Numbered from the stretch's first letter, positions 4,969-64,000 are shown. The stretch is 64,000 bases of DNA from Nitrospirota bacterium (GCA_963732675.1 CAVTAJ010000005.1:503019-567018), one strand, 5' to 3'. Notes: a model not told the origin generated them from the letters alone. Made by a program: numbers and translations.

Positions 4969-7497
4969 TCCGGAGCCTGCCCCAGTTTCCCTGTTCCTGT
5001 TCGCTCCACTTCGAGCGATCAAAGAGATCGATCCTCCGCAGTATCAGATCATTCCATCTTTGTAGTGCAAACTTTCCCGTATTCACCCCGATCGTCACTG
5101 CGCCGTCCATATCAGTTCTGCAGATCCGGGCCCCGATTTTCTCGTATCGCGCAAGGACCTCATCGGACGGATGATGATATGGATTCCCTCTGCCCACCGT
5201 CACGATCGCTACGTCGGGCCGTATCTGCGATACAAAGGCGTCGCTGCTCGAGCTTTTGCTTCCGTGGTGCGGGACCTTGATAAGGTCGGCTTTCAGGCCC
5301 GGCATGGTCCTTATGATGTCTCGTTCCGCCTCGATCCCGATATCGCCGGTGAATAACATGTCCTTGCCTTCCGACCTGACCTGCAGGACGAGAGAGCGGT
5401 TGTTCTCAGCGGCATATGCCTGCCGATCATGAGCATCGAATCCCCTGCGCGGATGGAGCACGGAGACCATCGCCTCGCCGAGCATCACCGGAGGATCATC
5501 AGCGGACACCAACCGACAGTGTATTTTTTTGTCTTCCATCGCCCGGCTGAACTCACCATGTCCCGGCAGGTCCGTATCCATTCCGCTCTCCCAGACTGCA
5601 GCGACCTCGAATTTTTTCAGGATCGCGATAAGCCCGTTCATGTGGTCTGGATGCGGGTGGGACAGGACCACGAGGTCCAGCCTGCGGATGCCTTTGTTCC
5701 AGAGATAGGGGGCAAGGACGCGCCGCCCGATATCGAAGCGGTTGTCGCGGGTGCCTCCGCCGTCGATCAGGATGGTCTTTCCCCCGGGAAGTTCGATGAG
5801 CGTGGAGTCTCCCTGGCCCACGTCGGGGAAGCTGATCATTGTGTGTTGTTGGGGTATGAAGGAGAGGGCAAGTCGGAAGCAGCAAACACACTCCCGCGAA
5901 AACCATGCCGATGACCGGTGCCTTTGAAACCCGTGATGATGATTCGAACGGCTTGAACCGGGAGAGCAGACGCGTCCTCGTGTGCATGAACAGTGAGACA
6001 AAGAGAACAGCATAGAACATAAGCCACACGACATCGGGCGCGGGCGGATGAAATTCAGCGAAGGGGAGCTGTGAAAAGAATGAGACAGCGCTGATAAAGG
6101 CGTCTGCTGCGGTCTGGTCCAGCCCGGCCAGCGGCAGGTGATGAGTAAAGAGAGAGAGTATCCCTGAAAACAGTCCGAGCGGAACGACCACCATACCCGC
6201 AAAAGGGACGATGATGAGGTTCGAGACGATGCCGGCGAATGAGATCTGGTTGAAGTAGTACGCGACAAGTGGTCCGGTGGCGAGACCCGTGGAAAGGGAT
6301 ATGATGATGAGGAGCAGGGCGCTGTTCCTGATCTTCCGGAAACGGGTCTCTGCCGTTAATTGCAGCTCGTTCCAGAGCGAGACGACGTAACCGATGACCA
6401 GGACGGAGAGAAACGAAAGCTGGAACGAGATGTCGAAGATCGCCTGCGGGTTTGAGATGAGGATGAGGAGCGCTGCGAGGGCAAGGGAGTGCATGAGCGC
6501 ATTCTCGCGGTCGAGGATGATCGCGAAGAGCCCCGCGGTGATCATAACGAGCGAGCGGACCGTTGCCACCTGCCCCCCTGCAAGCAGCGTATAGAAGACC
6601 ACGAGCGGGAGGGTGAGCCATGCGGCAATGATCTTTGGGTCCGTGTGCAGGGTCAAACGGTGATAGAACCGTTCCGGCAGCATGAACAGCAGCCACCTGA
6701 TCAGGCCGAAACAGAGGACCGCCACCATGCCGAGGTGGGATCCGGAGATGGAGATGATGTGCGTGACGCCTGCCGCCATGAACCGGTCTCGCAGCTCGTC
6801 GGTGAGCCGGCCTTCCTCGCCGAGCACCATGGCCTGGAGGATGGCAGATCCATCCCCTGAGGTTGACGCCAGAAACGATTGACGGATCCGTTCCCGCCAG
6901 TCCTGGATGGTCCTGAACAGACCTGTGCCGCGGCTGAGGATCTCGATCGTCATCCGCGCTCTTTACGTTCACGGTGTAATACATGCCGCTTCGGGCAAGG
7001 GATGCGGGGTAGTCAAAACCTCCCGGATTGTTGTATCCGCCAGGTTCGAACAGTTTGCCGGTGATGCGAATGATATCGCCATATCCAACGGACGACATCT
7101 CTTCGCGAACGCTGACGCGGACCTTCCCCGAAACGCGGGTTCCGTCGATGTCATGAATGTCCACGACAAAGCCGGTCCTCTCCGGGTCGCGATCAAGAGG
7201 GGAGATGATTTTGCCGATGATCTCGTGGGTCTCCTTATCAGGCCTGAAATGGCGGGTGTAATGATCGGCTGGAAACCACGCAGCCGAGGAGAGGTATGCG
7301 GCCATGCCCACAAGGCAGGGGAGAATGACGAGCATCGTACGGCGGATGGTCAGTTTATCCAACCAGGTGAGTAAGCCTGATATCAGAATGCTGAAAATGA
7401 TCAGGAAGCCGATCGAATAGGGGAAGTAGAGAAACTCGTGACCGAGCAGGAGGCCAGTGATGTATGCCAGTGTGAGGGTGATGATGGGTTTGCGCAT
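4949..7497 (-). CDS. comEC: DNA uptake channel ComEC/Rec2, with two apparent frameshifts (~6950, ~5850)
   Basis: DUF4131 region (NPGGFDY), Competence domain (GVTHIISISGSH, SFQLSF) and metallo-beta-lactamase domain (DVGQGD, SHPHPDH, KVPHHGS) are spread over three frames. Confidence 0.9.
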
Positions 7498-7703: not shown

Positions 7704-7976
7704 TCATTCCACCAATGACGAGATTATAATGTCAAACAAGAGACTGAAGGGGAGATCTAATTTTGGATAGTCCGGCGGTTCTACGCCATACTTATCCCTG
7801 TAACCTCGGAGAATATCATCGTGACCTGCGCTCGCATGTATGTCGAGCCGAGTGCCGCTATATATCTTTGGGCTTTCTTTGGTGAAGTGGGCAGTTGTTG
7901 TTAGATGACGCACAGGCAGTGGTTAAAAGCGTGAAAATAACATGGCAGATACCAAGCGTCTGTTCCGTGTTGTCAT
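7704..7976 (-). CDS. YceK/YidQ-like small lipoprotein, frameshifted
   Basis: GAGGAG RBS then ATG at 7976. Lipobox LTTAC appears after a frameshift, followed by KIYSGTRLD...DLPFSLLFD, typical of YceK/YidQ. Confidence 0.55.
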
Positions 7977-8635: not shown

Positions 8636-9985
8636 CTACCCCAGCTTCTCCTTGATGATCCCTGCAAGACCATCAGCAAGCGTCTTGATCTCGTTCTGGT
8701 CCTCGCCCTCGATCATCACGCGTACCTTGGGTTCGGTGCCGGAATACCGCACGAGCAGGCGGCCGGTACCATCCAGCTTCTTCTCGATCTCGGACATCCG
8801 CTTCGCGATCTCGGGGATTGAATCGAGGTCTTTCCGCTCCTTTACTTTCACGTTCACGAGTATCTGGGGATAGGTCTTCATGCAGGCCGCGAGTTCCGAC
8901 AGCGGCTTATCGGTCTGCTTCATGATCGTGAGGACCTGGAGCGCGGAGATGAGGCCGTCGCCGGTGGTGTTGTGGTCCAGGAAGATGATGTGGCCCGACT
9001 GCTCTCCACCGAGGTTGTAGCCTCCTTCGATCATTTTTTCCATGACGTACCGGTCTCCGACCGCGGCGCGGACGAGCTTGCCGCCTGCTTGACGCATTGC
9101 CAGCTCCAACCCGAGATTGCTCATGACCGTGGCCACGAGCGTATTGTGGTTGAGATTGCCGTGTTTCATCATGTGGAGAGCGCAGATGGCCATGACCACG
9201 TCGCCGTCGACCATGACACCGTTCTCATCGCACAGGATGATACGGTCAGCGTCGCCGTCAAAGGCGATCCCGATCTGCGCATTGTTCGCCACCACGGAAC
9301 GGAAGATGACCTCGGGGTGGAGCGATCCGCAGCCCTGGTTGATGTTCATGCCGCTTGGCTGGTCGTAGAGCGAGATCACGTCGGCGCCGAGTTCCGTCAG
9401 GACGCGGGGACCGATCTTGTAGGCTGCGCCGTTTGCGGAGTCAACGATGATGCGCAGCCCCGCAAGGTCCATACCGCGGGGGATCGAGGACTTCACGAAC
9501 TCGTTGTATCTGCCGATGGCGTCGTCGATCCGGAAGGCCTTGCCGATCTCGCTGGCCGTAGGCCGGACGGAGTCTATGGCGCCGGAAAAAATCAGGTCCT
9601 CCATCTTTTTTTCCATCTCGTCGGGAAGTTTGAATCCGTCCCTGCCGAAGAATTTAATGCCGTTGTCCTCATAGGGGTTGTGCGATGCCGAGATCACGAC
9701 GCCGGCATCGGCCCTGAGGCTGCGCGTGAGGAACGCGATCCCCGGCGTCGGCACAGGCCCGATCAGCAGCACATCCATGCCCATGGAGCACAGCCCGGAA
9801 GTAAGCGCGCTTTCTATCATATACCCCGAGAGCCTCGTGTCCTTGCCGATCACGATGCGGTGTCTGCGGGCCGAATCTCGGAATACGTGCGCCGCCGCCC
9901 TGCCGATGCGCATTGCCATCTCCGAGGTCATGGGGTCCTGGTTCGCTACACCCCTTACGCCATCTGTTCCGAAAAGCTTTTTCAT
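8636..9985 (-). CDS. glmM: Phosphoglucosamine mutase
   Basis: Motifs [27 protein letters not shown] and RYSGTEP. Confidence 0.97.
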
Positions 9986-53840: not shown

Positions 53841-54683
53841 GTGAAGAACATCTTGCTCATTATCGCACTGGTTTTTTCGCCCCTCCTTGCTCACGCAGCG
53901 ACAGTCACGTCTCCCAGGGTCATCATCCAGCCGGAAAAGATCGGTCCCGGCGATATCATCACGGTCGCTGTCAAGAATACGGCCGGACCGGTGGAAGGCA
54001 TCTTCAACGGAAAGCAACTCTATTTCAACCCGGCAAATAAAACGTTCAAGGCGGTCATCGGCATCGATCTGAATCAGGAGCCGGGGAGGTATCCCCTTGA
54101 GGTCATGATCAACGGCAAGAAGCTCCGTAAGAACATCAGGATCGTGAAGAAGAAGTATCCGGTCCAGCGGCTCACGCTGCCCGAGGGCATGGTTGTCCTC
54201 TCGCCCGAGAACGAGGCGCGGGCGGAGCAAGAGCAGAAGAAGATAGCGGCCATCTGGCCTGTCGATTCCCTCCGTATCTGGAGCGGGAACTTCATCGATC
54301 CCCTGCCGGGGAAAAAGGTCGGCACCCCGTTCGGCGTCAGAAGGATCATCAATAACATTCCGAAGAATTCTCACTCGGGAGTTGACATCACGGCAGACGA
54401 GGGAGAGCCGGTGCTCGCGCCCAATGACGGCGTGGTGGTGCTCGTGGATGACCAGTTCTATTCCGGGCACAGCGTTGTTCTCGATCATGGACAGGGGATC
54501 TACACCATGTTCTTTCATCTCTCGAAGATCAACGTTCGATACGGGCAGGCGGTCATGAAGGGCGATACGATAGCCCTCGTCGGCGCCACCGGCCGCGCCA
54601 CCGGCGCCCATCTGCACTGGGGCGTGCGCATGCAGGGCGCGAAGGTGGACCCGCTGGAATTGATCCGGTTAAAGCTGGAGTAA
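53841..54683 (+). CDS. Exported M23-family metallopeptidase
   Basis: HSGVD, FFHLS and GAHLHW; signal peptide. Confidence 0.92.
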   Translation: MKNILLIIALVFSPLLAHAATVTSPRVIIQPEKIGPGDIITVAVKNTAGPVEGIFNGKQLYFNPANKTFKAVIGIDLNQEPGRYPLEVMINGKKLRKNIRIVKKKYPVQRLTLPEGMVVLSPENEARAEQEQKKIAAIWPVDSLRIWSGNFIDPLPGKKVGTPFGVRRIINNIPKNSHSGVDITADEGEPVLAPNDGVVVLVDDQFYSGHSVVLDHGQGIYTMFFHLSKINVRYGQAVMKGDTIALVGATGRATGAHLHWGVRMQGAKVDPLELIRLKLE

Positions 54684-54911
54684 AATAGATAGGGGCATGG
54701 GTTAAGGGGACAGGGAGAAGTGAAAGGCGAAAGGGTGAGGACAACCGATTAAAAGATCTTTCTCCCCATTTCTCCGTCATTCGTCTCCTTTCTCCTAAAC
54801 GGTTTTTCCGAGTACTTGAGATAATTCATTTTGACAACATTTATATGAAAGACCCAAAAGTCGTCATTCCTGTGAAAACGGAAATCCAGTGTTTTGATAA
54901 CACGTGACCCA

Positions 54912-55679
54912 ATGATCAAAGTCCTCTCCATAGCAGGCTCCGATCCGTCGTCCGGCGCCGGGATCCAGGTCGACCTCAAGACCTTCCAGCAGCTGGGCGC
55001 TTTCGGCATGGCCCTGCCGGCTGCGCTCACGGTCCAGAACAGCCAGGGCGTCTCGGCAGTCGAACCGATCTCATCAGCACTGCTTTCGAAGCAGCTTGAC
55101 GTTCTGCTTTCGGACATCACGCCTGATGCGATCAAGACCGGCATGCTCCTGACGAAGCAGAACGTTGGGGCCGTGGTAAAAGCAATGACCAGGCATGCGA
55201 TCAAGAACCTTGTCATCGACCCGGTGCTCCGGTCCAGTTCCGGGAAACACCTGCTCGAACACGATGCTGTTGCGGTCCTGAAGAAAAAACTTTTTCCCCG
55301 GGCGCTCATTATTACACCGAACATTGCCGAGGCTGAAGTGCTGACCGGCATTGCGATGGAATGTGATTCGGATATGGATTTTGCAGCAGGCAAACTGCTC
55401 GATATGGGGCCGGCGTATGTACTCATCAAAGGCGGACATCGTATTGGACCGGCCGTGGACACCCTGTATGGCGGAAAAACCGTGCTCAGCTTCTCCACAC
55501 CACGGCGAAAAGGGGAGTTTCACGGCACCGGGTGCGTACTTTCCTCGGCAATAACCGTGTTCATAGCCCAGGGATTACCTGTGGAAAAGGCTGTGGAAAA
55601 GGCGAAACAGTTTGTGGATATGATGTTGAAACGTGCGGAGCCGGTGGGGAAGGGCACGACGAACTATTTCCAATTCTGA
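54912..55679 (+). CDS. thiD: HMP/HMP-P kinase
   Basis: IAGSDPSSGAGIQVD, KTGML, IDPVL, TPNIAEAE, KGGH and HGTGC. Confidence 0.95.
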   Translation: MIKVLSIAGSDPSSGAGIQVDLKTFQQLGAFGMALPAALTVQNSQGVSAVEPISSALLSKQLDVLLSDITPDAIKTGMLLTKQNVGAVVKAMTRHAIKNLVIDPVLRSSSGKHLLEHDAVAVLKKKLFPRALIITPNIAEAEVLTGIAMECDSDMDFAAGKLLDMGPAYVLIKGGHRIGPAVDTLYGGKTVLSFSTPRRKGEFHGTGCVLSSAITVFIAQGLPVEKAVEKAKQFVDMMLKRAEPVGKGTTNYFQF

Positions 55680-55697
55680 GACGACGGATGGATGGTT

Positions 55698-55757
55698 GGG
55701 GAACGCGCGGGTGAGACGCGCGTATTCTGCGCGTCGTTCTCGACCCACAGGTTGAGA
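55698..55757 (-). mobile_element. attC-like site 5 (degenerate)
   Basis: Minus strand TCTCAAC-ctgtg-GGTCGAGA..acgcgc agaatac gcgcgt..TCTCACC-cgcgc-GTTCCCC has R''/L''/L'/R' spacing with an extra base in L''. Confidence 0.6.
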
Positions 55758-55877
55758 GAATCATTTTGCATCACCCCGAAGCGGTTTCCGCCCGGCACGT
55801 TCTCCGATATCTTTCTGAAGTCATCTCATTTTTGCACGTTTCGCACTACCCGACCGACGCACCCTCCTGTTCTGAAA

Positions 55878-56762
55878 TTATAAGTCCAGATCAAATCCCA
55901 TCCCGAACGCGGCCATATATTCGCCCTTCCGGTTGCGGTCCTCGATATAATGGCCGATCTGCGCATAGAACCGCGGCCGCTTTAACGTTCCCACGGCGTC
56001 CCGCAGGACCCAATATGCCATAACACCCCCACGTTGTCTTCTCAGGTCCGCTGCAGCTGCATGCATTATCTCGTAATAGGGTCCTGCCAAAAGCGAAGCA
56101 GCTCCTGAGCTTTTCACAATAGGGAACAAAAAGTTGGTCCTGTTCTGAATAACATGGTCTCCGTCCTGAAGAAGCGTCTCGTATGTCCAATCCAGGTAAT
56201 AAGGTCCTTTTCCCGTGAAGTGAAAATACGCAAGATCGGTCTGATTGACGATAATAACGGGGCCGGCTTTCACGTACAGGGTCGGCCTGATCAGGAGCCT
56301 GCTGCCGTTGCCCTCCTCTTCCTTTCCCTTCAAGGCATCAACGTCGGCTCTGCCGAAGGATGCGGTGGCGGAGGGAAATGAAAGCAAGCTGGTGTTCGTT
56401 CCATAGAACCTGTAGAGATCGTACTGCACACGGAGATTGGCAAAGACAGCGGCAAGCCATTCGGCATGGACGGATGCCTGTCCATAGGCGGGTGTAGTCC
56501 CGAGTCCGAAGCCTGTTTGCAGATACGACGAAGGAATACCCATGTCTTTATCGGTCCCTTTGATCCACCGGCGAAATCCGCCAAGGGAAACCATTAGTCC
56601 GTCCGGATTCGACTGGGCGGCAAGATCAGCCTGGAGTACTGTTTGGACCTCATGATCGGATGCTCCGTAAGCATTTGGGACGCTGCGAAAAAGCGGCAAA
56701 CCGACGATGAGCACTATCGTTAGCCAAAAAAGGATGCCACTGATGTTATCGTTCTTATTCAT
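55878..56762 (-). CDS. Hypothetical exported protein, possibly a beta-barrel; likely gene cassette
   Basis: Signal-like N-terminus, alternating amphipathic strands and C-terminal FGMGFDLDL; flanked by attC-like sites. Confidence 0.7.
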   Translation of the reverse strand: MNKNDNISGILFWLTIVLIVGLPLFRSVPNAYGASDHEVQTVLQADLAAQSNPDGLMVSLGGFRRWIKGTDKDMGIPSSYLQTGFGLGTTPAYGQASVHAEWLAAVFANLRVQYDLYRFYGTNTSLLSFPSATASFGRADVDALKGKEEEGNGSRLLIRPTLYVKAGPVIIVNQTDLAYFHFTGKGPYYLDWTYETLLQDGDHVIQNRTNFLFPIVKSSGAASLLAGPYYEIMHAAAADLRRQRGGVMAYWVLRDAVGTLKRPRFYAQIGHYIEDRNRKGEYMAAFGMGFDLDL

Positions 56763-56770
56763 GTTGTATA

Positions 56771-56818
56771 CATTAACGATGAGCTGACCCGTTTGCCGGG
56801 TCGAGCGATTGGTCAGCC
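56771..56818 (-). mobile_element. attC-like site 4 (short)
   Basis: Minus strand GGCTGAC-caatc-GCTCGACC cggcaaacg GGTCAGC-tcatc-GTTAATG, 8 bp before the ATG at 56762. Confidence 0.65.
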
Positions 56819-56925
56819 CCGTATTTTCTTTTGATAGTGATAGTCAGCGTCGGCCACTACATCCACTAAGGTTCTAAGAACTTTTCTGATCCGAAAGTAA
56901 AAGCAGTGATCCCGTCTCCGTGGCT

Positions 56926-57577
56926 TTAAAGAGTCGGACCTGGGCTGTTCTTTTCCATGAGGTCGGCCAGTTTCGACCAGTCGAAGGAGAGGAGGTTCAT
57001 GATCTGCGATCGGATCTTCCGTATCGCCGCGGATGCGTCACCTTCCTTTTTCATATTGTAAAACGGACAGGACCGCGCCAAACGTACGCTCGATGTAATC
57101 CGGGATCGGCGGCAGAACGTCACCGCGTCTCGTGAAATAGGGATCTTCTCCGGGCGCGCAGGGAACCGTGAACACATTGAACATTCTGCACCCTACCGGC
57201 CGGACAGGGTGAATGGAGCAGGAGTCATCGATAAGAAACGGGCATCCCGAAGCGGTCGAATGGACCGCAAGCCGGCTCCTCAGGACTTCCCTGACGGGCA
57301 ATGTAATTTTCTCCGTGGCATACCAGTAGATGCCGACGAGTTCGTGCGGGTACAGGGGAAGGTCCTTTTGATCAACGCAGCAGGTGCCGCATCCTTTCCC
57401 GCAGGCGAGTGTTTTCTTCTGCTTTTTCTCCATATCCCTGACCGCGATCGCCACTCCGGTATCGGCGATCGAGTACGCGTCAAGAAGCAGGGAAAGCCAG
57501 GGAAGGCGTTGCTCGTCAACGGGAAAGTGCAGGCGCCGCGAAAGACCGGCAGTCATATGTCCCCGGTTTTTTTTCAT
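56926..57577 (-). CDS. YkgJ/FliB-like cysteine-cluster protein, apparent frameshift at ~57065
   Basis: CGKGCGTCC..CPFLIDDSCSIHPVRPVGCRMF. Confidence 0.85.
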
Positions 57578-57724
57578 GTTGTCATTCCGCGCATTGTTTT
57601 TTCAAGGCAAGTGCGGACCATGATGGTGAAACACATTAACAATCAGCGAAAGGAATGTCAACAGGAAACCTGACAGCAGGAAGGGATAACGGCAAGACAG
57701 AAAACCCGTCGGACTTGAGCCGAT

Positions 57725-57791
57725 CCATAAACTCGAATTGGAAACTGACGACGCGATGAGGCGGATTACCGGTTCGAACGGCGGATTAGCA
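57725..57791 (-). mobile_element. attC-like site 3 (highly degenerate)
   Basis: Minus strand TGCTAAT-ccgcc-GTTCGAAC...CAA-ttcga-GTTTATG. Confidence 0.35.
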
Positions 57792-57943
57792 GGAAGATGA
57801 ATCGGTAATTAGCACCAACACTTTTTCTCTTAGTTATAAATGAATTTTAGAATTAGTTTCTTTCCGCATCATCATTTTTGCTTCATTTCGATCTTCGCTC
57901 TCATTCTATATAGCCCTATGAGAATAGTTATAGTATCTTGAAA

Positions 57944-58357
57944 TCAACCCGTGTGCCCCTTGGATCCTATCCACTTTAGGCAATCTTGGTAATTCTTGAA
58001 AACACGCACTTCCTTAGAACCACTCGGCAAAAGGCTGCGATATATTTCATACATTCGAGCTAGACCAAACGCTATGGGTTTGTTTACAACAATTGCAAGT
58101 TTGGTCTTGACTCCTTGCGGATCTTTAATGGAGGCCATATGTGCAAGCTTTTTTATACCTTCAGAGCTCAATAAAAAATTATTTGCGCCGCTGAAGTCTG
58201 CAATTTCGTTGAATGAGGCGTACTGGGGCAGGCTTTTTATGTTTTGTTGATATTTAGAGAGGGCATCAAGAAGTTCACTGTCAACGGCATCTCCGGACCA
58301 GATTGTAGTAATAAGTTTAGCGTCATCATCGATTTTATGCAGTACTGGCATGGCCAC
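57944..58357 (-). CDS. Hypothetical STAS/SpoIIAA-like protein, AT-rich; likely gene cassette
   Basis: KLAIVVNKPIAFGLARMYE..VRVFK..CLKW; starts immediately after an attC-like site. Confidence 0.7.
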   Translation of the reverse strand: MAMPVLHKIDDDAKLITTIWSGDAVDSELLDALSKYQQNIKSLPQYASFNEIADFSGANNFLLSSEGIKKLAHMASIKDPQGVKTKLAIVVNKPIAFGLARMYEIYRSLLPSGSKEVRVFKNYQDCLKWIGSKGHTG

Positions 58358-58363
58358 CCTAAG

Positions 58364-58430
58364 TGCTGACGCGCAAGTTCAGCGGTACGTGCTGCGTTTT
58401 ATCCTGTGCCCGCTGGATGAATTGTCGGCG
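58364..58430 (-). mobile_element. attC-like site 2 (degenerate)
   Basis: Minus strand CGCCGAC-aattc-ATCCAGCGG...CCGCTGAA-cttgcgc-GTCAGCA. Confidence 0.55.
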
Positions 58431-58449
58431 CAGGCAGCGTCCGGCAGCC

Positions 58450-58600
58450 TCAATGCGCGACTGTGAAGCGCCGGCAGACGTGGGCGGGACGCTCCAGTTC
58501 GTCGAGAAATGCGACCGCGTAGTCCTCTACCGAAATGCGGCTCACCCTTTTTCGTCCGTGACGAGGAGATCGTGGCCTGGTTCGTACGGCCGGTGCGCTG
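58450..58600 (-). pseudogene. 3' fragment of an NAD(P)H-binding (YwnB-like) oxidoreductase
   Basis: DLLVTDEKG/SRISVEDYAVAFLDELERPAHVCRRFTVAH*; the 5' part is missing and the stop lies 20 bp before an attC-like site. Confidence 0.65.
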
Positions 58601-58607
58601 TCCGGTC

Positions 58608-58676
58608 TCAGACGTTAGCGCGCGACGTGATGTGATACACCGCGCCTGGGTATTCTACGCGAAGAGGTCGTGCCAT
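58608..58676 (-). pseudogene. 5' stub of a REP-associated tyrosine (Y1/RAYT-like) transposase
   Basis: MARPLRVEYPGAVYHITSRANV*, the hallmark N-terminus of this family. Confidence 0.75.
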
Positions 58677-58833
58677 AAAGTGAGGATAGCAGTGACGTTG
58701 AGAATTGTCAATGATAACGACCTGAGCCCATTGGCTGATGCCCATGCCGGATAATCCAAGGTTAATTTGCTTGCGAAAGCGGAAAGCGCGGGTTATTATG
58801 CCACATCTGGTTAACAGTCACGGGATATATATA

Positions 58834-59361
58834 ATGCATCGCTTATTCGACAAATCTTCTATTTTATTTATAAAAATAGCCATTCTATCTCTCCTGACCG
58901 TCGTTCCTTCTTCTTATGCGGCCTCAAACCCTATACGGGAAGCGGCGCCGGACTTTACGTTATCCGACATGCAGGGCATCGCGCACAAGCTCGCCGATTA
59001 TCGCGGCAGTGTAGTGGTTTTGAATTTCTGGGCCTCATGGTGTCGAGAATGCGCGTTAGAGATGCCGTCTCTCGACGGCCTCTACAAACGGCTGAAAAAA
59101 GACGGCCTGGTCGTGATCGGGGTCTCCGTCGACAGGGCCCGCGCAGACATCGCGCAGTTGGCAGGCAAGGTGTCTTATCCTGTACTGCTTGACGAAAGAG
59201 GAGACGTGTTCGTAAAAGGATACACGATCACCCGGCTGCCGGCCACGATCATCATCGATCGCGATGGGGCCATCGTTAAGAAGATCTACGGTGGGCGGGA
59301 TTTCAGCTCCGGGGCCTTTATCGGGGAAATGACCGGTCTCTTGCAGGAGAAAAAGCGGTAA
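58834..59361 (+). CDS. TlpA-family disulfide reductase
   Basis: APDFTL, LNFWASWCREC and LPATIIIDRDG. Confidence 0.88.
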   Translation: MHRLFDKSSILFIKIAILSLLTVVPSSYAASNPIREAAPDFTLSDMQGIAHKLADYRGSVVVLNFWASWCRECALEMPSLDGLYKRLKKDGLVVIGVSVDRARADIAQLAGKVSYPVLLDERGDVFVKGYTITRLPATIIIDRDGAIVKKIYGGRDFSSGAFIGEMTGLLQEKKR

Positions 59362-59708
59362 TGAAACGCCTTTACGGGCATATCGGAGCGACACTCTTCA
59401 TGGTCCTCTTGATAGGCTGCGGCCCCTCGACATTCTTGATAGACAAGGCGGGCACCTCCGCATATTTCGGACGTAATAGCCAGTTCCTTAACAAGAAGCT
59501 GTGCACCAGTGACGAATTGAGGCTGATACTCGCGGACGCGGACCTTCCCCGGGAGATGGAAAGCGATTTCTATCGCTATACCTGCTCGGAGGAGAAGTCC
59601 TATGAAAAGGTCATATCCCTTTATCTTGTTCTGACGCCGGTGGAAAAGTTGCAATTAAAGAGGGCGTTCGAAAAACACGGGTACGAAGTGAATCGCATGC
59701 ACTGCTGA
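59361..59708 (+). CDS. Hypothetical lipoprotein
   Basis: Lipobox LIGC; start overlaps the tlpA stop (TAATG). Confidence 0.75.
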   Translation: MKRLYGHIGATLFMVLLIGCGPSTFLIDKAGTSAYFGRNSQFLNKKLCTSDELRLILADADLPREMESDFYRYTCSEEKSYEKVISLYLVLTPVEKLQLKRAFEKHGYEVNRMHC

Positions 59709-59889
59709 AGCTGATGCACTGCCCCGGTCGGGGCACAAAAACTGCTTGGATTGAGCGGATAATGCGCCAGAATATGGCTGATAGACGGTGCATGAAGCAG
59801 TCTGAGTGCTGGGCCTGGAGAGCCGTAGTCTCGCATATAACGCGCACGTTGTGGCCGTCTGCATGTGAGGCGCCACGGAGTATTTCACC

Positions 59890-60834
59890 ATGGATAATAT
59901 CATCCCGTTTCTCATACAGCACGGATATTCCGTAGTGTTTATCTGTGTTTTTGTAGAAACAATGGGGTTTCCCATACCGAGCGCTCCGCTGCTTATCACG
60001 GTCGGGACCATGGCCGGTGTCGGACAGTTGAACCTGTTTCTCTGCATGGGGTCAGGCGTCTGTGCAGCGCTGGTGAGCGACCTGTTTTGGTTCACTATGG
60101 GACGGCGACGCGGAGGCCAGGTGTTATCCGTGCTTTGCCGCATATCTCTCGAGCCTGACTCCTGCGTCCGCCGGACGGAAAGCATCTTTACCCGGTACGG
60201 CGGCCGCTCCCTTCTCGTAACAAAGTTTTTCCCCGGGTTTGGCGCAGTGTCGACTCCGATGGCGGGTATGATCGGCATGCGTCTGTGGCGTTTTTTGCTT
60301 TTCGACGGTATGGGTATCATCCTCTGGATCGGCGCCTATACACTTCTCGGTTATGTATTCAGCAGAGAACTCGATCGTGCGTTGGATTACGCCGCGGGAA
60401 TGGGCAAAACGCTCTCGGTGTTAGTGGCCGGCGGGCTGGCGCTGTATATCCTCCGGAAGTATGCCTTGCGCCGGCGTATATTGCGCGAGCTCTACACCGC
60501 GCGCATAACACCGGAAGAGCTGAAGCAGAGGCTGGACGCCGGCGAAGATGTCGTTATCATCGATCTGCGCCACGAACTTGACTTTGAACATGATCCCTAT
60601 ATCATACCCGGCGCTTTGCGGATCCCCTTGGATGAGGTAGCGCGCCATCCAGTCGTTTCGAGCGATCGCGAGATCGTCGCCTATTGTACGTGCCCCAACG
60701 AAGCCTCAAGCGCCCAGGTGGTGCTGCGGTTATCTCAGCAGGGAATTACGCGCATTCGGCCGCTCGCCGGCGGTTTTCACGCCTGGCGCGACCGCGATTA
60801 TCCCGTAGTACTGGTGGACAGACAGAAATCATAA
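59890..60834 (+). CDS. DedA/VTT membrane protein fused to a rhodanese domain
   Basis: ETMGFPIPS, LCRISLEPDSCV, KFFPG; IIDLR, IPGA, YCTCPNEASSA and LAGGFHAW. Confidence 0.9.
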   Translation: MDNIIPFLIQHGYSVVFICVFVETMGFPIPSAPLLITVGTMAGVGQLNLFLCMGSGVCAALVSDLFWFTMGRRRGGQVLSVLCRISLEPDSCVRRTESIFTRYGGRSLLVTKFFPGFGAVSTPMAGMIGMRLWRFLLFDGMGIILWIGAYTLLGYVFSRELDRALDYAAGMGKTLSVLVAGGLALYILRKYALRRRILRELYTARITPEELKQRLDAGEDVVIIDLRHELDFEHDPYIIPGALRIPLDEVARHPVVSSDREIVAYCTCPNEASSAQVVLRLSQQGITRIRPLAGGFHAWRDRDYPVVLVDRQKS

Positions 60835-60882
60835 AGTCGTCGAAGTTCAGGGTTTTGATTATTACCAAAGAAGCTTACAAAC

Positions 60883-60920
60883 AAAAAAGGGCCGCCTTCA
60901 GCTTGAAAGGCGGTCCTTGT
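60883..60920. terminator. Intrinsic terminator, U-tract on the minus strand
   Basis: AAAAAAGGGCCGCCTT-cagcttga-AAGGCGGTCCTT. Confidence 0.65.
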
Positions 60921-61053
60921 ACGTTCCGGCTCTCCAGAGATGATAAATAGAGCCAATGGACAGAGTGTTTTGAATTATCGGTACGGTGAGCAACACCTAC
61001 TTTTCTGCAATGTCAATATTTCGACGTGGGTAAATTGTTCTGGAAGTATCATG

Positions 61054-61121
61054 CATTAACGCGAAGCTAAGCCAACGCTTGGAGCACGCAAAGGCCGGTC
61101 GGCTTGAGCGCCGTGTTATGC
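61054..61121 (-). mobile_element. attC site 1 (best preserved)
   Basis: Minus strand GCATAAC-acggc-GCTCAAGC cgac...ttg GCTTAGC-ttcgc-GTTAATG, 4 bp after the stop at 61126. Confidence 0.8.
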
Positions 61122-61125
61122 CATT

Positions 61126-61605
61126 TTATATACAATTCACAACCTCGACTCTTTCTTCGAAAAGCAATTCCTTCACGCTTTCAACCTCAACAAATTGATA
61201 CGGTGACGTCTGTGCTTGCGTAACAACGCAATTGCTGCCGGGCTTCTTAATGATAATCGATGCTTTAATAAACTCACCATAATCCTCTATTTTCTCCGCC
61301 GAGATTGAATAACCGCCAGTAGGACGCCCACCAAGGCTAAGTAAAGCTACTCTCCGAGAAGAAAAATCCACGGTGTGCTCGGCAAGTGGTTGTATGAATA
61401 AATACAAACTTGAATTAAATGCCGTCTGATCTGTATATATCTCAAGTTTCCTATTCTCAGGCAGGCCATTAATTGTGTTGTCACCAGACGCTATTACGGA
61501 ATAGCTGACCGTCGGAAGAGGTGTGTCTGCATTAGAATCTGGAGTGCAACTCACCAACAATGGAGCGACCACCGATAAAAGAAAGCCAATTATTTTGAGC
61601 TTCAT
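61126..61605 (-). CDS. Lipoprotein with a PrcB C-terminal-like domain; first gene cassette
   Basis: AGGAGG RBS; lipobox LVSC; VDFS..LGGRPTGGYSI..PGSNCVVTQAQTSPYQFV; AT-rich. Confidence 0.8.
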   Translation of the reverse strand: MKLKIIGFLLSVVAPLLVSCTPDSNADTPLPTVSYSVIASGDNTINGLPENRKLEIYTDQTAFNSSLYLFIQPLAEHTVDFSSRRVALLSLGGRPTGGYSISAEKIEDYGEFIKASIIIKKPGSNCVVTQAQTSPYQFVEVESVKELLFEERVEVVNCI

Positions 61606-61647
61606 GATTCCTCCTATTGGCAGTATCGCGACGCGAAGCGCCGAGAG

Positions 61648-61700
61648 TACAAGTTATTATAGGGACGGATAACAGTAACATGGATTATATTAATGGTCAA
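61648..61700 (-). promoter_or_regulatory. Pc-like promoter and candidate attI region
   Basis: Minus strand TTGACC-17 bp-TACTGT, followed by ATCCGTCCCTATAATAACTTGT, pointing into the cassette array. Confidence 0.5.
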
Positions 61701-61832
61701 GATTTATTGAAAAAAACTTGACGTAACCGATGGAATTCATTACTATTTGAATACTGACTAATATGATTCTAATGGAATATCATAATAAGCTGACCATTAT
61801 TAAATTGGGTATTCATCGGAGGTTTTCTTCGC

Positions 61833-62021
61833 ATGCTCCTCATTCCGGATGACAGATTAAAACCCTTTGATGCCATCATGGGAAAGAAGGCCATTCTTCC
61901 CTCGCACCGAGCCGATTACAGGAAGTGGCTGCGGTATTATCTTGATTTCCGAACACTTCTCTTGCAGGCGCACAAAGATATTAGGACCATCAAGGAAGTC
62001 GGCAGCCCGCTGGATTTTTGA
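61833..62021 (+). pseudogene. intI: Internally deleted integron integrase remnant
   Basis: [12 protein letters not shown] (N-terminus of long-type IntI) is joined to [20 protein letters not shown] (cf. IntI HLLQANYDIRTIQ...KSPLDF). Divergent from the attC array. Confidence 0.7.
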
Positions 62022-62040
62022 GACTGAGAGGAGACATTTT

Positions 62041-62754
62041 ATGCGTAGTGACGGCAGGAAGGCGGACGAACTCCGCAAGATAAAGATCACCAGGAACTAT
62101 ATCAAGACAGCAGAGGGCTCGGTGCTGATCGAGATGGGCGACACCAGGGTCATCTGCACTGCCACGGTCGAGAACTCCGTCCCGCCCTTTTTGCGCGGCA
62201 AAGGCACGGGCTGGGTCACGGCTGAATACGCCATGCTTCCGCGCTCCTCGGGCCAGAGGATCCAGCGCGAGCGGAGCAAGGTGGGCGGCCGCACGCACGA
62301 GATCCAGCGGCTCATCGGCAGGTCCCTTCGCTCGGTTGTCGATATGAAGGCGCTCGGCGAACGGTCCGTGCTGCTCGACTGCGACGTGATCCAGGCGGAC
62401 GGCGGCACGCGCACCGCATCGATCACCGGGGCGTACATCGCGCTCGTTGATGCGCTCCGCCATAGTGAAAAGCAGGGGCTGATCAAGACCGTGCCGGTCA
62501 CGGACTACCTTGCCGCGATCAGCGTCGGCATCGTGGACGGCAAACCCATGCTCGACCTCTGCTATATCGAGGATTCGACAGCGGAAGTGGACATGAACCT
62601 GGTGATGACGGGCAAGGGTAAGATCGTTGAGGTGCAGGGCACTGCCGAGGGTGAACCATTCTCGAGGGCCGAGCTCAGCAGGCTTCTCGCGCTCGGAGAG
62701 AAGGGCATCAAAATGCTGGTCAAGAGACAGCGGGCGCTCTTGAACAAGTCTTAG
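62041..62754 (+). CDS. rph: Ribonuclease PH
   Basis: [42 protein letters not shown] and EVQGTAE. Confidence 0.97.
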
Positions 62755-63023
62755 AGGTTATGCAAACTGTACAGGTCCTTATAACTGTTCAGGAGACGCA
62801 GAGACGCAGAGTTGGAGAAATGGGCGAAAAGACATTCTTTTATTTATGTTAATCATCCGCACCTTATGCCTTTTAATTCCCCATTTTTCAGCTGATCGTT
62901 TTCTTCTGTATCTGAGTTCTGAGGTTTATGCGTTCACGGTTATTTGCGTTGAATGGCGCTTATTGATGTTATTGTCATCCCTGTTCATACGATGAATCCA
63001 CTGCCGAAAAAGTTGAGGTTCTC

Positions 63024-63593
63024 TTGTCCCTCTTGACGATCTTCTTTATCACCTTCGGCCTCATCTTCACCGCTGAACTCGGCGACAAGACGCAGCTCAT
63101 GGTCTTTACCCTGGCGCTTCGCTACGGAGGACGGCCGGTCCTCGCCGGCGCGTTCCTTGCCTTCGCGCTCCTGTCGGGAAGCGCCGCGATCGTGGGCAGG
63201 GGAGTGGGTGAGCTGTTGTCGCCCGTCCTCATTACGCGCATCTCCGCCTGGGTGTTCATCCTCTTTGGCCTGTACATGCTGCTGCGCAAGACTGAGGAAG
63301 AATCGCCGGAGCAGGTCAAACCCTCGGCGCGCGCAGGGTTCATCGCCGCCTTCAGCCTGATCGCCATCTCCGAGATGGGGGACAAGACGCAGATCGCTAC
63401 GCTGCTCCTGTCCGTAAAATATCAGAGCTTCCTCGCGGTATTCCTCGGCAGTCTTGCCGCCCTCAGCTTCGCCACGCTGATCGGGATCCTCGTGGCCGGC
63501 AGGCTCCATACGTTCATCCCGGCCAGGTATATCCGTCCGGCATCCGGCATTCTCTTCGTTCTCCTCGGCATCGGCACGCTTGTTCTGGCGTGA
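63024..63593 (+). CDS. TMEM165/GDT1 (UPF0016) Mn2+/Ca2+ transporter
   Basis: Twin E-x-G-D-K-T-Q motifs: AELGDKTQ and SEMGDKTQ. Confidence 0.92.
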   Translation: MSLLTIFFITFGLIFTAELGDKTQLMVFTLALRYGGRPVLAGAFLAFALLSGSAAIVGRGVGELLSPVLITRISAWVFILFGLYMLLRKTEEESPEQVKPSARAGFIAAFSLIAISEMGDKTQIATLLLSVKYQSFLAVFLGSLAALSFATLIGILVAGRLHTFIPARYIRPASGILFVLLGIGTLVLA

Positions 63594-63713
63594 TCCCTTA
63601 TCTCCGAACTGATAGTTGTTGAAAATTCAGCTGCCCTTCGCTATACTTTCTCTCAGTCCTTCGGGACGACGGGAACAGATCCCAATCTTACCTGAGAACT
63701 CTTCGAGGTCATC

Positions 63714-64000
63714 GTGAATTTATCCTCACTATTTCAAAAAGCACCTGAAATGAGCGCTGAAGCTGTGAAGGAGCTGATGAAACAGAAAAAGCCGGGCGAG
63801 TATAACCTGATCGACGTCCGCCAGCCGGGCGAGTACGAGCAGGGCCATATCCCGGGCGCGAAGCTCATCCCCATCACAGAACTGGCGTCACGGATAAGCG
63901 AGATCGATCCTGCAAAGCCGACCATCCTGTACTGAGAAGCGGGGAATCGCAGCCGTGCTGCTGCGGGAATGCTTAGGAACGCGGGTCTCACGAACATGTC
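63714..64000 (+). CDS. Rhodanese-domain protein, probable selenoprotein (runs off the window end)
   Basis: LIDVRQPGEYEQGHIPGA..TILY-TGA-EAGNRSRAAAGMLRNAG; the TGA sits at the catalytic Cys position. Confidence 0.85.

Follow-up and report, generated by a model that had tools for sequence, protein, structure and literature searches.

In the survey of Nemergut et al. (2008; PMC2426708), nearly one third of the integron integrase genes (intI) were pseudogenes, more than one fifth of the integron-bearing lineages carried more than one intI gene and one IntI clade was ~120 aa longer than usual. Clusters of attC sites lacking integron integrases (CALINs) were described by Cury et al. (2016; PMC4889954), who detected recognisable intI pseudogenes beside 15 of 279 CALINs only, with matches covering >50% of the profile. 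The locus presented here lies in a 64,000-nucleotide (nt) stretch of DNA, analysed as a whole and called the window (G000:C5:503019-567018), from the metagenomic bin of an uncultured Nitrospirota lineage (G000; 2.96 Mb, 23 contigs, 89% complete, 3.9% contamination). The interval between thiD and rph in this window (55680-62040) very probably represents a decayed sedentary chromosomal integron, in which intI was reduced to a stub of 62 codons.

The integrase remnant and its counterpart in a relative

Pfam searches identified thiD and rph as the two flanks of the interval, and open reading frame (ORF) calling recovered the 62-aa plus-strand ORF reported in the initial annotation, with the stated peptide and divergent from the minus-strand ORFs. 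The features on which the identification of the element depends are the following, the attC sites being given further below.

61833-62021, plus strand: intI remnant, 62 codons, with junction 1 at 61952/61953 and junction 2 at ~61991/61992
61718-61746, plus strand: integrase promoter (P_int), TTGACG-17-TACTAT, from the promoter scan
61700-61672, minus strand: candidate cassette promoter, TTGACC-17-TACTGT, with a conserved -35 and below the scan thresholds
61645-61665, minus strand: putative attI core, from an alignment read by eye

Residues 1-40 of the stub were 44-67.5% identical to the N-termini of four IntI proteins from the same genus (blastp E 3e-6 to 3e-14, small database), and a global alignment placed stub residues 1-40, 41-53 and 54-62 on residues 1-40, 439-451 and 476-484 of the 484-aa IntI of genome G006, bearing out the proposal that both ends of the peptide resemble integron integrases. 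Two in-frame deletions are required by this three-block alignment, one of 389-399 codons, according to the reference chosen, and one of 24 codons, in agreement with the in-frame, two-step loss of the catalytic core that had been postulated; the placing of junction 2 is uncertain by two residues, TI, found on both sides of it. About 87% of intI is gone, in frame, and the stub is without the linker, the second SAM-like domain and the whole catalytic domain; from what is established for tyrosine recombinases, all the catalytic residues fall within the deleted portions. With its homology to intI, the position and orientation of intI and a disrupted coding sequence, the ORF is an intI pseudogene; a functional IntI, as found in complete integrons, is absent from the locus, where 62 codons are left and no profile is matched.

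The four same-genus IntI proteins were ~475-486 aa long, carried an additional SAM-like domain at the N-terminus (two stretches matched Pfam SAM_4) and scored 353-383 bits on TIGR02249 (cut-off 265). This profile was matched above its cut-off in 21 of the 61 genomes searched and, at E<=1e-30, in 6 of the 8 genomes of the genus; integron integrases are common in the lineage.

An intact intI with variable cassettes, which the initial annotation had suggested looking for in related thiD-rph intervals, was present in the same slot of the same-genus genome G006. Its locus (L020) mirrors the window: rph and full-length intI are followed by a cassette array of ~5.5 kb and then by thiD, the M23 peptidase gene and thiC. 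The two loci share the flanks (thiC, M23 peptidase gene, thiD and rph), the orientation, the array boundary, P_int and the attI motif, and homology between them stops ~14 nt past the thiD stop. They differ in that G006 has a 484-aa full-length IntI, an intact IS200-like gene inside the array, an AbiEii-like gene pair between intI and rph, and no cassette in common with the window. The gene pair (L020:1168-1921, plus strand), formed by a small ORF and an AbiEii-like nucleotidyltransferase, is convergent with intI; AbiEii is a type IV toxin-antitoxin family. At three further loci (G008, L038 and L039) thiD lies directly beside rph, in the same orientation and without insertion, at a spacing of 60-176 nt (60 nt in G008), indicating that the integron was inserted into an older thiD-rph pair. 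The L038 and L039 empty sites came from an RNase PH homologue search in which the 78 other genomes were distant and uninformative.

The stub and the first cassette ORF are separated by a promoter/attI region of 227 nt, where back-to-back promoters (61672-61746) had been proposed. The plus-strand member was found by the scan and is kept upstream of intI in relatives, whereas the minus-strand member fell below the scan thresholds; the -35 of the latter (GGTCAA on the plus strand) is conserved in G005 and G001, and the scan offered an alternative minus-strand candidate, TTTTCA-18-TATAAT, at 61713-61684. Promoter-like sites were no commoner in this region than in shuffles (8 vs 6.9 +/- 2.2), and an alignment showed the region upstream of intI, P_int included, to be conserved among the window, G005 and G001. 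The attI motif was kept in the integrons of all four relatives, at the point where homology among the five loci stops, although its crossover triplet, read by eye, was GTA in the window (TAC at 61648-61650, plus strand) vs GTT in all four relatives. The 62-codon stub stands behind an intact P_int and ribosome-binding site, and a weak terminator-like hairpin was found at 61999-62013.

Successive intI remnants and the promoter upstream of rph

Remnants of intI were found upstream of rph in four genomes, at four stages of reduction. The 62-codon stub of G000 is the longest of the series listed here; G001 retains P_int and ~17 N-terminal codons fused out of frame to the last ~10 codons, in G004 only P_int, a ribosome-binding site and the nine final codons of intI are left, and G005 retains P_int alone, its -10 lying ~38 nt before the rph ATG. 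attC sites were also present within the G001, G004 and G005 intervals. The right-hand deletion junctions of the G000, G001 and G004 remnants fall within ~9 nt of one another, which may be due to microhomology (ACCATC, purine-rich runs resembling ribosome-binding sites), to a selected leader or to a shared ancestral junction.

Read from the sequences, this series raises the possibility, which we regard as doubtful, that the landing of the integron split rph from a thiD operon and that P_int then became the rph promoter, being kept by selection, in G000 together with the translated stub before rph, while intI shrank; the stub would then owe its survival to what it carries rather than to its peptide. 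The close spacing and common orientation of the pair in the empty-site genomes (60-176 nt) would agree with such a history, as would a P_int-like TTGAC[G/A]-17-TAnnnT co-oriented upstream of rph in all four genomes with a decayed intI, and also in G006 with its intact gene. The -35 lies 323 (G000), 184 (G001), 166 (G004) and ~60 nt (G005) before the rph ATG; in G005 the entire intI coding sequence is gone and the promoter is kept. However, the G000 and G001 deletions lie inside the ORF, so that retention of the promoter needs no selection in them and two informative cases are left, and in G006 a 1-kb opposite-strand gene pair, one of them AbiEii-like, stands between intI and rph, which manages without a close P_int. 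The weak hairpin at 61999-62013 also speaks against a promoter take-over, as do two other intI stubs of G000 (L036 and L037), whose 5' ends are kept as well, which suggests that deletions are biased and not that selection acts through rph. If the take-over were true, the clustered right junctions would mark either a leader that must stay or a deletion hot spot.

In total, three intI stubs and one intI fragment at a contig edge were found in the G000 assembly. A second decayed integron, on contig C21, consists of a 91-aa ORF (L036:7942-8217, minus strand) with ~71 N-terminal IntI residues and a weak PF13495 match, and of divergent attC sites (L036:9381-11432, plus strand) at 9381, 10524 (45.7 bits), 10644, 11202 and 11373. 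The third, on contig C1, has a 71-aa ORF (L037:7618-7833, plus strand) with ~52 N-terminal IntI residues and divergent attC sites (L037:4279-6587, minus strand) at 6528 (53.8 bits), 4410 and 4279; a DUF362-like/4Fe-4S-like ORF, identified by sequence reading, begins at the end of this stub. The fragment at the edge of contig C1 (C1:2-115, plus strand; L005) comprises the last 37 intI codons (TIGR02249 E=4.8e-11), the remainder of the gene being absent from the assembly, and it could belong to a second, intact intI whose product acts in trans.

attC sites, cassette exchange and the integrity of the assembly

Covariance models for attC were built without window sequence, from 12 sites of G008 (R1), from 41 sites (R2) and from 60 sites drawn from the relatives' loci and two other G000 loci (R3); the R3 search covered both strands of the entire 64 kb (128 kb in all), with filtering switched off. 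A direct-repeat search of the relatives' arrays was productive for G008 alone, with 12 clear repeats; they fold into a consensus of 17 pairs, and compensatory changes occur in 9. The R3 matches with E<0.01 were three attC sites only, all of them on the minus strand inside the interval, and the fourth-best match reached 12.2 bits (E=0.32). The three sites are given here together with the two others that had been proposed.

55698-55757, minus strand: terminal attC with an intact AAC...GTT core, 18 nt away from the thiD stop; R1 48.8, R2 59.3, R3 57.2 bits, R3 E=4e-17
56771-56818, minus strand: attC with R'' GAC for AAC and R' GTT intact; R3 20.7 bits, E=3.3e-4
57725-57800, minus strand: proposed site, unsupported as attC; no match, single-stranded DNA (ssDNA) fold z=+1.13, G004 homology break at 57726/57727
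58364-58432, minus strand: proposed site, GAC...GTC palindrome, unsupported as attC; no match, fold z=+0.29, kept in G004 without a homology break
61054-61121, minus strand: first-cassette attC with an intact AAC...GTT core and a longer loop; R1 18.9, R2 23.1, R3 24.4 bits, R3 E=1.6e-5

Thus, among the five attC-like sites of the initial annotation, those at 55698, 61054 and 56771 were supported by the covariance models, and those at 58364 and 57725 obtained no score with any of the three. The postulated decay from AAC to GAC was seen in the R'' box of site 56771, which was at chance level with R1 (10.3 bits) and R2 (12.3 bits, E=0.46); for the sites at 55698 and 61054, these two models agreed with R3 in the ranking. 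A weak match at 7935-7975 (plus strand), far from the integron, was returned by all three models (12.0-12.6 bits, E 0.3-1.8) and is probably due to chance. A search of 54000-64000 against Rfam at E<=10 gave four chance-level matches, none of them attC-like, although whether Rfam includes an attC family was left unchecked.

The weak site at 56771 was validated independently by comparison with G004, the closest genome (92% and 95% aa identity in thiD and rph, respectively), with which the window shares the segments 54912-55707, 56775-57726, 57888-58545, 58663-60925 and 61992-62755 at 87-94% nucleotide identity. Homology ends at 55707, 3 nt from the GTT (55702-55704) of attC 55698, and resumes at 56775, inside the GTT of attC 56771; between these points, window 55708-56774 (a 294-aa ORF plus attC) is replaced in G004 (1254-1865) by a shikimate-kinase cassette with a different attC. 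This swap, bounded by the GTTs of two attC sites, is the footprint of an integrase-mediated cassette exchange. The R'' GAC of 56771 is present in G004 too, indicating that the change predates the split of the two genomes. Beside attI, a PrcB_C cassette in the window stands against 4.9 kb with five minus-strand ORFs and a 72.7-bit attC in G004. The different cassettes at these two places, between attC 56771 and 55698 and beside attI, contradict the view that the array was frozen by the loss of the integrase; the swaps may have preceded or followed the intI deletions. As the resident integrases of both sister genomes are dead, cassette-precise swaps between them point to either recombination in trans or recent independent decay. 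The arrangement is that of gene cassettes, with three minus-strand attC sites opposite the plus-strand remnant and two boundaries confirmed by the GTT homology breaks.

It is rather unlikely that sites 58364 and 57725 are genuine, heavily decayed attC sites and that the interval was once an array of five or more cassettes. Both are at positions where attC would be expected, 58364-58432 directly 5' of a 137-aa ORF and 57725-57800 between two minus-strand ORFs; by eye, the former has complementary GAC/GTC ends, a 6-bp inner stem and a 3' half like the model consensus, and at the latter the homology with G004 breaks (57726/57727), with two extra minus-strand genes there (aldo/keto reductase and YHS domain). 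In contrast, neither site was matched at E<=10 by R1, R2 or R3, no attC was detected at the corresponding G004 breakpoints, the folds of both sites were no better than those of shuffles, and an equally loose palindrome scan returned 41 such palindromes in the window. This regex/stem scan (14 strict and 41 relaxed matches, both strands) picked up 58364-58430 but, on the strand concerned, missed all three sites that the models support; loosely defined palindromes of attC type are frequent in the window. Minimum-free-energy folding of ssDNA was dropped as a test for attC, because accepted and rejected sites were not separated by it.

The short form of the ORF was checked with Logan contigs from public runs of different studies. 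Contigs from three runs of three studies bridged it, namely X1 record 2 (61386-62033), X2 record 11 (61224-62033) and X4 record 29 (61889-62305), which differed from the window at 6, 6 and 16 letters, respectively; two differences shared by contigs (61840 T>C and 61971 C>A) restore the residues Pro3 and Asn47 of full-length IntI. A contig of X3 tracks the window to 61952, which is exactly junction 1, and then translates like full-length IntI. It is extremely improbable that the true genome carries an intact intI and that the short ORF arose by collapse or chimerism in the metagenome assembly, even if the genome is a bin of 23 contigs with the completeness and contamination given above (89% and 3.9%) and contig C1 starts with the last 37 intI codons, ending in TIKEV.SPLDF as in the remnant and in none of the four same-genus IntI: the bridging contigs span both junctions and, having differences of their own, are not copies of the assembly, the C1 fragment has a different sequence and different downstream DNA, and different, even shorter remnants occupy this locus in G001 and G004.

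Several observations weigh against the reading of the interval as a decayed integron with a dead integrase. No Pfam or NCBIfam family matched the 62-aa peptide, and a genome-wide TIGR02249 search missed it; the stub is assigned to intI on the strength of synteny and of its pairwise similarity to relatives. The bridging evidence consists of contigs rather than raw reads, and one of the runs may be the source sample of the window. The two sites at 58364 and 57725 had no match, and the ssDNA fold z values of the five sites, +0.35 (61054, accepted by the models), +0.29 (58364), +1.13 (57725), -2.08 and -4.22, gave no separation from shuffles. The models are centred on short attC sites of 57-60 nt and missed at least one attC-like site seen by eye next to thiD in G004, so that the non-detection of 58364 and 57725 is weak evidence. 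Finally, the cassette swaps relative to G004 represent recombination after the lineages split, and the word dead fits the resident intI, not necessarily the array.

Gene content of the interval and relation to known integrons

The genes of the interval and its flanks are listed below, from left to right.

54894-55679, plus strand: thiD (phosphomethylpyrimidine kinase), left flank; PF08543, E=1e-78
55878-56762, minus strand: cassette ORF, 294 aa, without a Pfam family; slot of the shikimate-kinase cassette in G004
57038-57577, minus strand: CxxCxxCC-domain ORF, 179 aa, PF03692; common to G004, with its 5' part there in three frames
57944-58357, minus strand: AT-rich ORF, 137 aa, without a Pfam family; common to G004, 89% aa identity, dN/dS 0.24
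58608-58745, minus strand: 45-aa ORF, fragment of an IS200/Y1-type transposase-like gene (its N-terminal ~22 residues), matched by tblastn at other places in G000
58738-59361, plus strand: AhpC/TSA-redoxin gene, opposite-strand block
59361-59708, plus strand: 115-aa lipoprotein-like ORF, opposite-strand block
59890-60834, plus strand: VTT/DedA+rhodanese fusion, opposite-strand block
60892-60913: terminator-like hairpin after the opposite-strand block
61126-61605, minus strand: AT-rich ORF of the first cassette, 159 aa with a PrcB_C domain, absent from G004; PF14343, E=6.5e-11
62041-62754, plus strand: rph (RNase PH), right flank, 19 nt 3' of the remnant stop; PF01138 and PF03725

The description of the minus-strand ORFs as AT-rich held for two of the four (61126-61605 and 57944-58357; GC 0.37-0.46) and failed for the other two (GC 0.51-0.57). 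The genes shared with G004 had dN/dS values of 0.11-0.37 (0.32 and 0.14 for the flanking thiD and rph), a sign of purifying selection which supports the suggestion that cassette genes persist as domesticated genes. The 2.1-kb plus-strand block at 58738-60834 lies on the opposite strand, had no attC by the models and does not look like cassettes; it is common to G004 (91% nucleotide identity, dN/dS 0.11-0.27), and its arrival by insertion is more probable than its capture as cassettes.

Transposase fragments similar to the one in the window were found on five other G000 contigs (C1, C8, C14, C19 and C20), and a full-length 314-aa IS200-like copy (PF01797 and a DnaA-C-like HTH) lies inside the G006 array (L020:6480-7424, plus strand). 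The DedA-rhodanese gene was found in 11 of 41 genomes of the family, G000 included; one in-frame TGA was present in 8 of 11 matches outside G000, which may be selenoproteins, and the window copy (59890-60834) is without an in-frame stop. The rph of G004 (L030:12641-13350) gave two overlapping matches that differ in frame (residues 1-54 and 45-237), which suggests a sequencing error or a frameshift close to its 5' end.

In summary, an integron with intI, attI, promoters and minus-strand cassettes stands at the point where thiD and rph adjoin in related genomes. The resident intI has been reduced to 62 codons by two in-frame deletions and the attI triplet mutated from GTT to GTA, and three attC sites are left, one of them with an altered R'' box. 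The locus would no longer be able to recombine cassettes by itself, the two or three good attC sites might still be usable in trans by another IntI, and the stub peptide is presumably without a function of its own. Genes common to the sister genome would be retained by selection as ordinary chromosomal genes, and the middle 4.2 kb (56819-61053) may consist of old cassettes stripped of attC plus the opposite-strand three-gene block beside the transposase fragment.

The transition from intI pseudogene to orphan attC cluster is usually invisible, and a single genus here displays the empty site, an intact integron and four degrees of erosion. Both intI pseudogenes and CALINs are already well described; what is added is the comparative series and the lead on promoter retention. 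For annotation, the lesson is that short N- or C-terminal IntI pieces and a conserved attI/P_int region should be sought besides integrase profiles.

As in the Xanthomonas pseudo-integrons cited in PMC2426708, the locus is a chromosomal integron in a constant position next to a housekeeping gene, its intI works in some relatives and is disrupted in others, and cassettes vary between close relatives. Unlike those, its decay went far past a stop codon or frameshift, with ~87% of intI lost in frame, and the host is an uncultured Nitrospirota lineage. The multiple intI pieces of G000, three stubs and one edge fragment, parallel the multi-intI lineages of the same survey. As in CALINs, as defined in PMC4889954, there are two or more attC sites (here three within 5.4 kb) and no integrase detectable by profile nearby, TIGR02249 having no match at the locus; since the stub matches no profile, a CALIN is probably what a pipeline relying on profiles would call, and a 4-kb clustering rule would split 61054 from the other two sites (gap 4.2 kb). 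A stub too small for profile detection is a concrete route by which a CALIN without a recognisable intI pseudogene may arise on the spot. Unlike most CALINs, going by the same source, this one retains a sub-threshold stub together with attI and P_int, which show that it originated in place by the collapse of intI.

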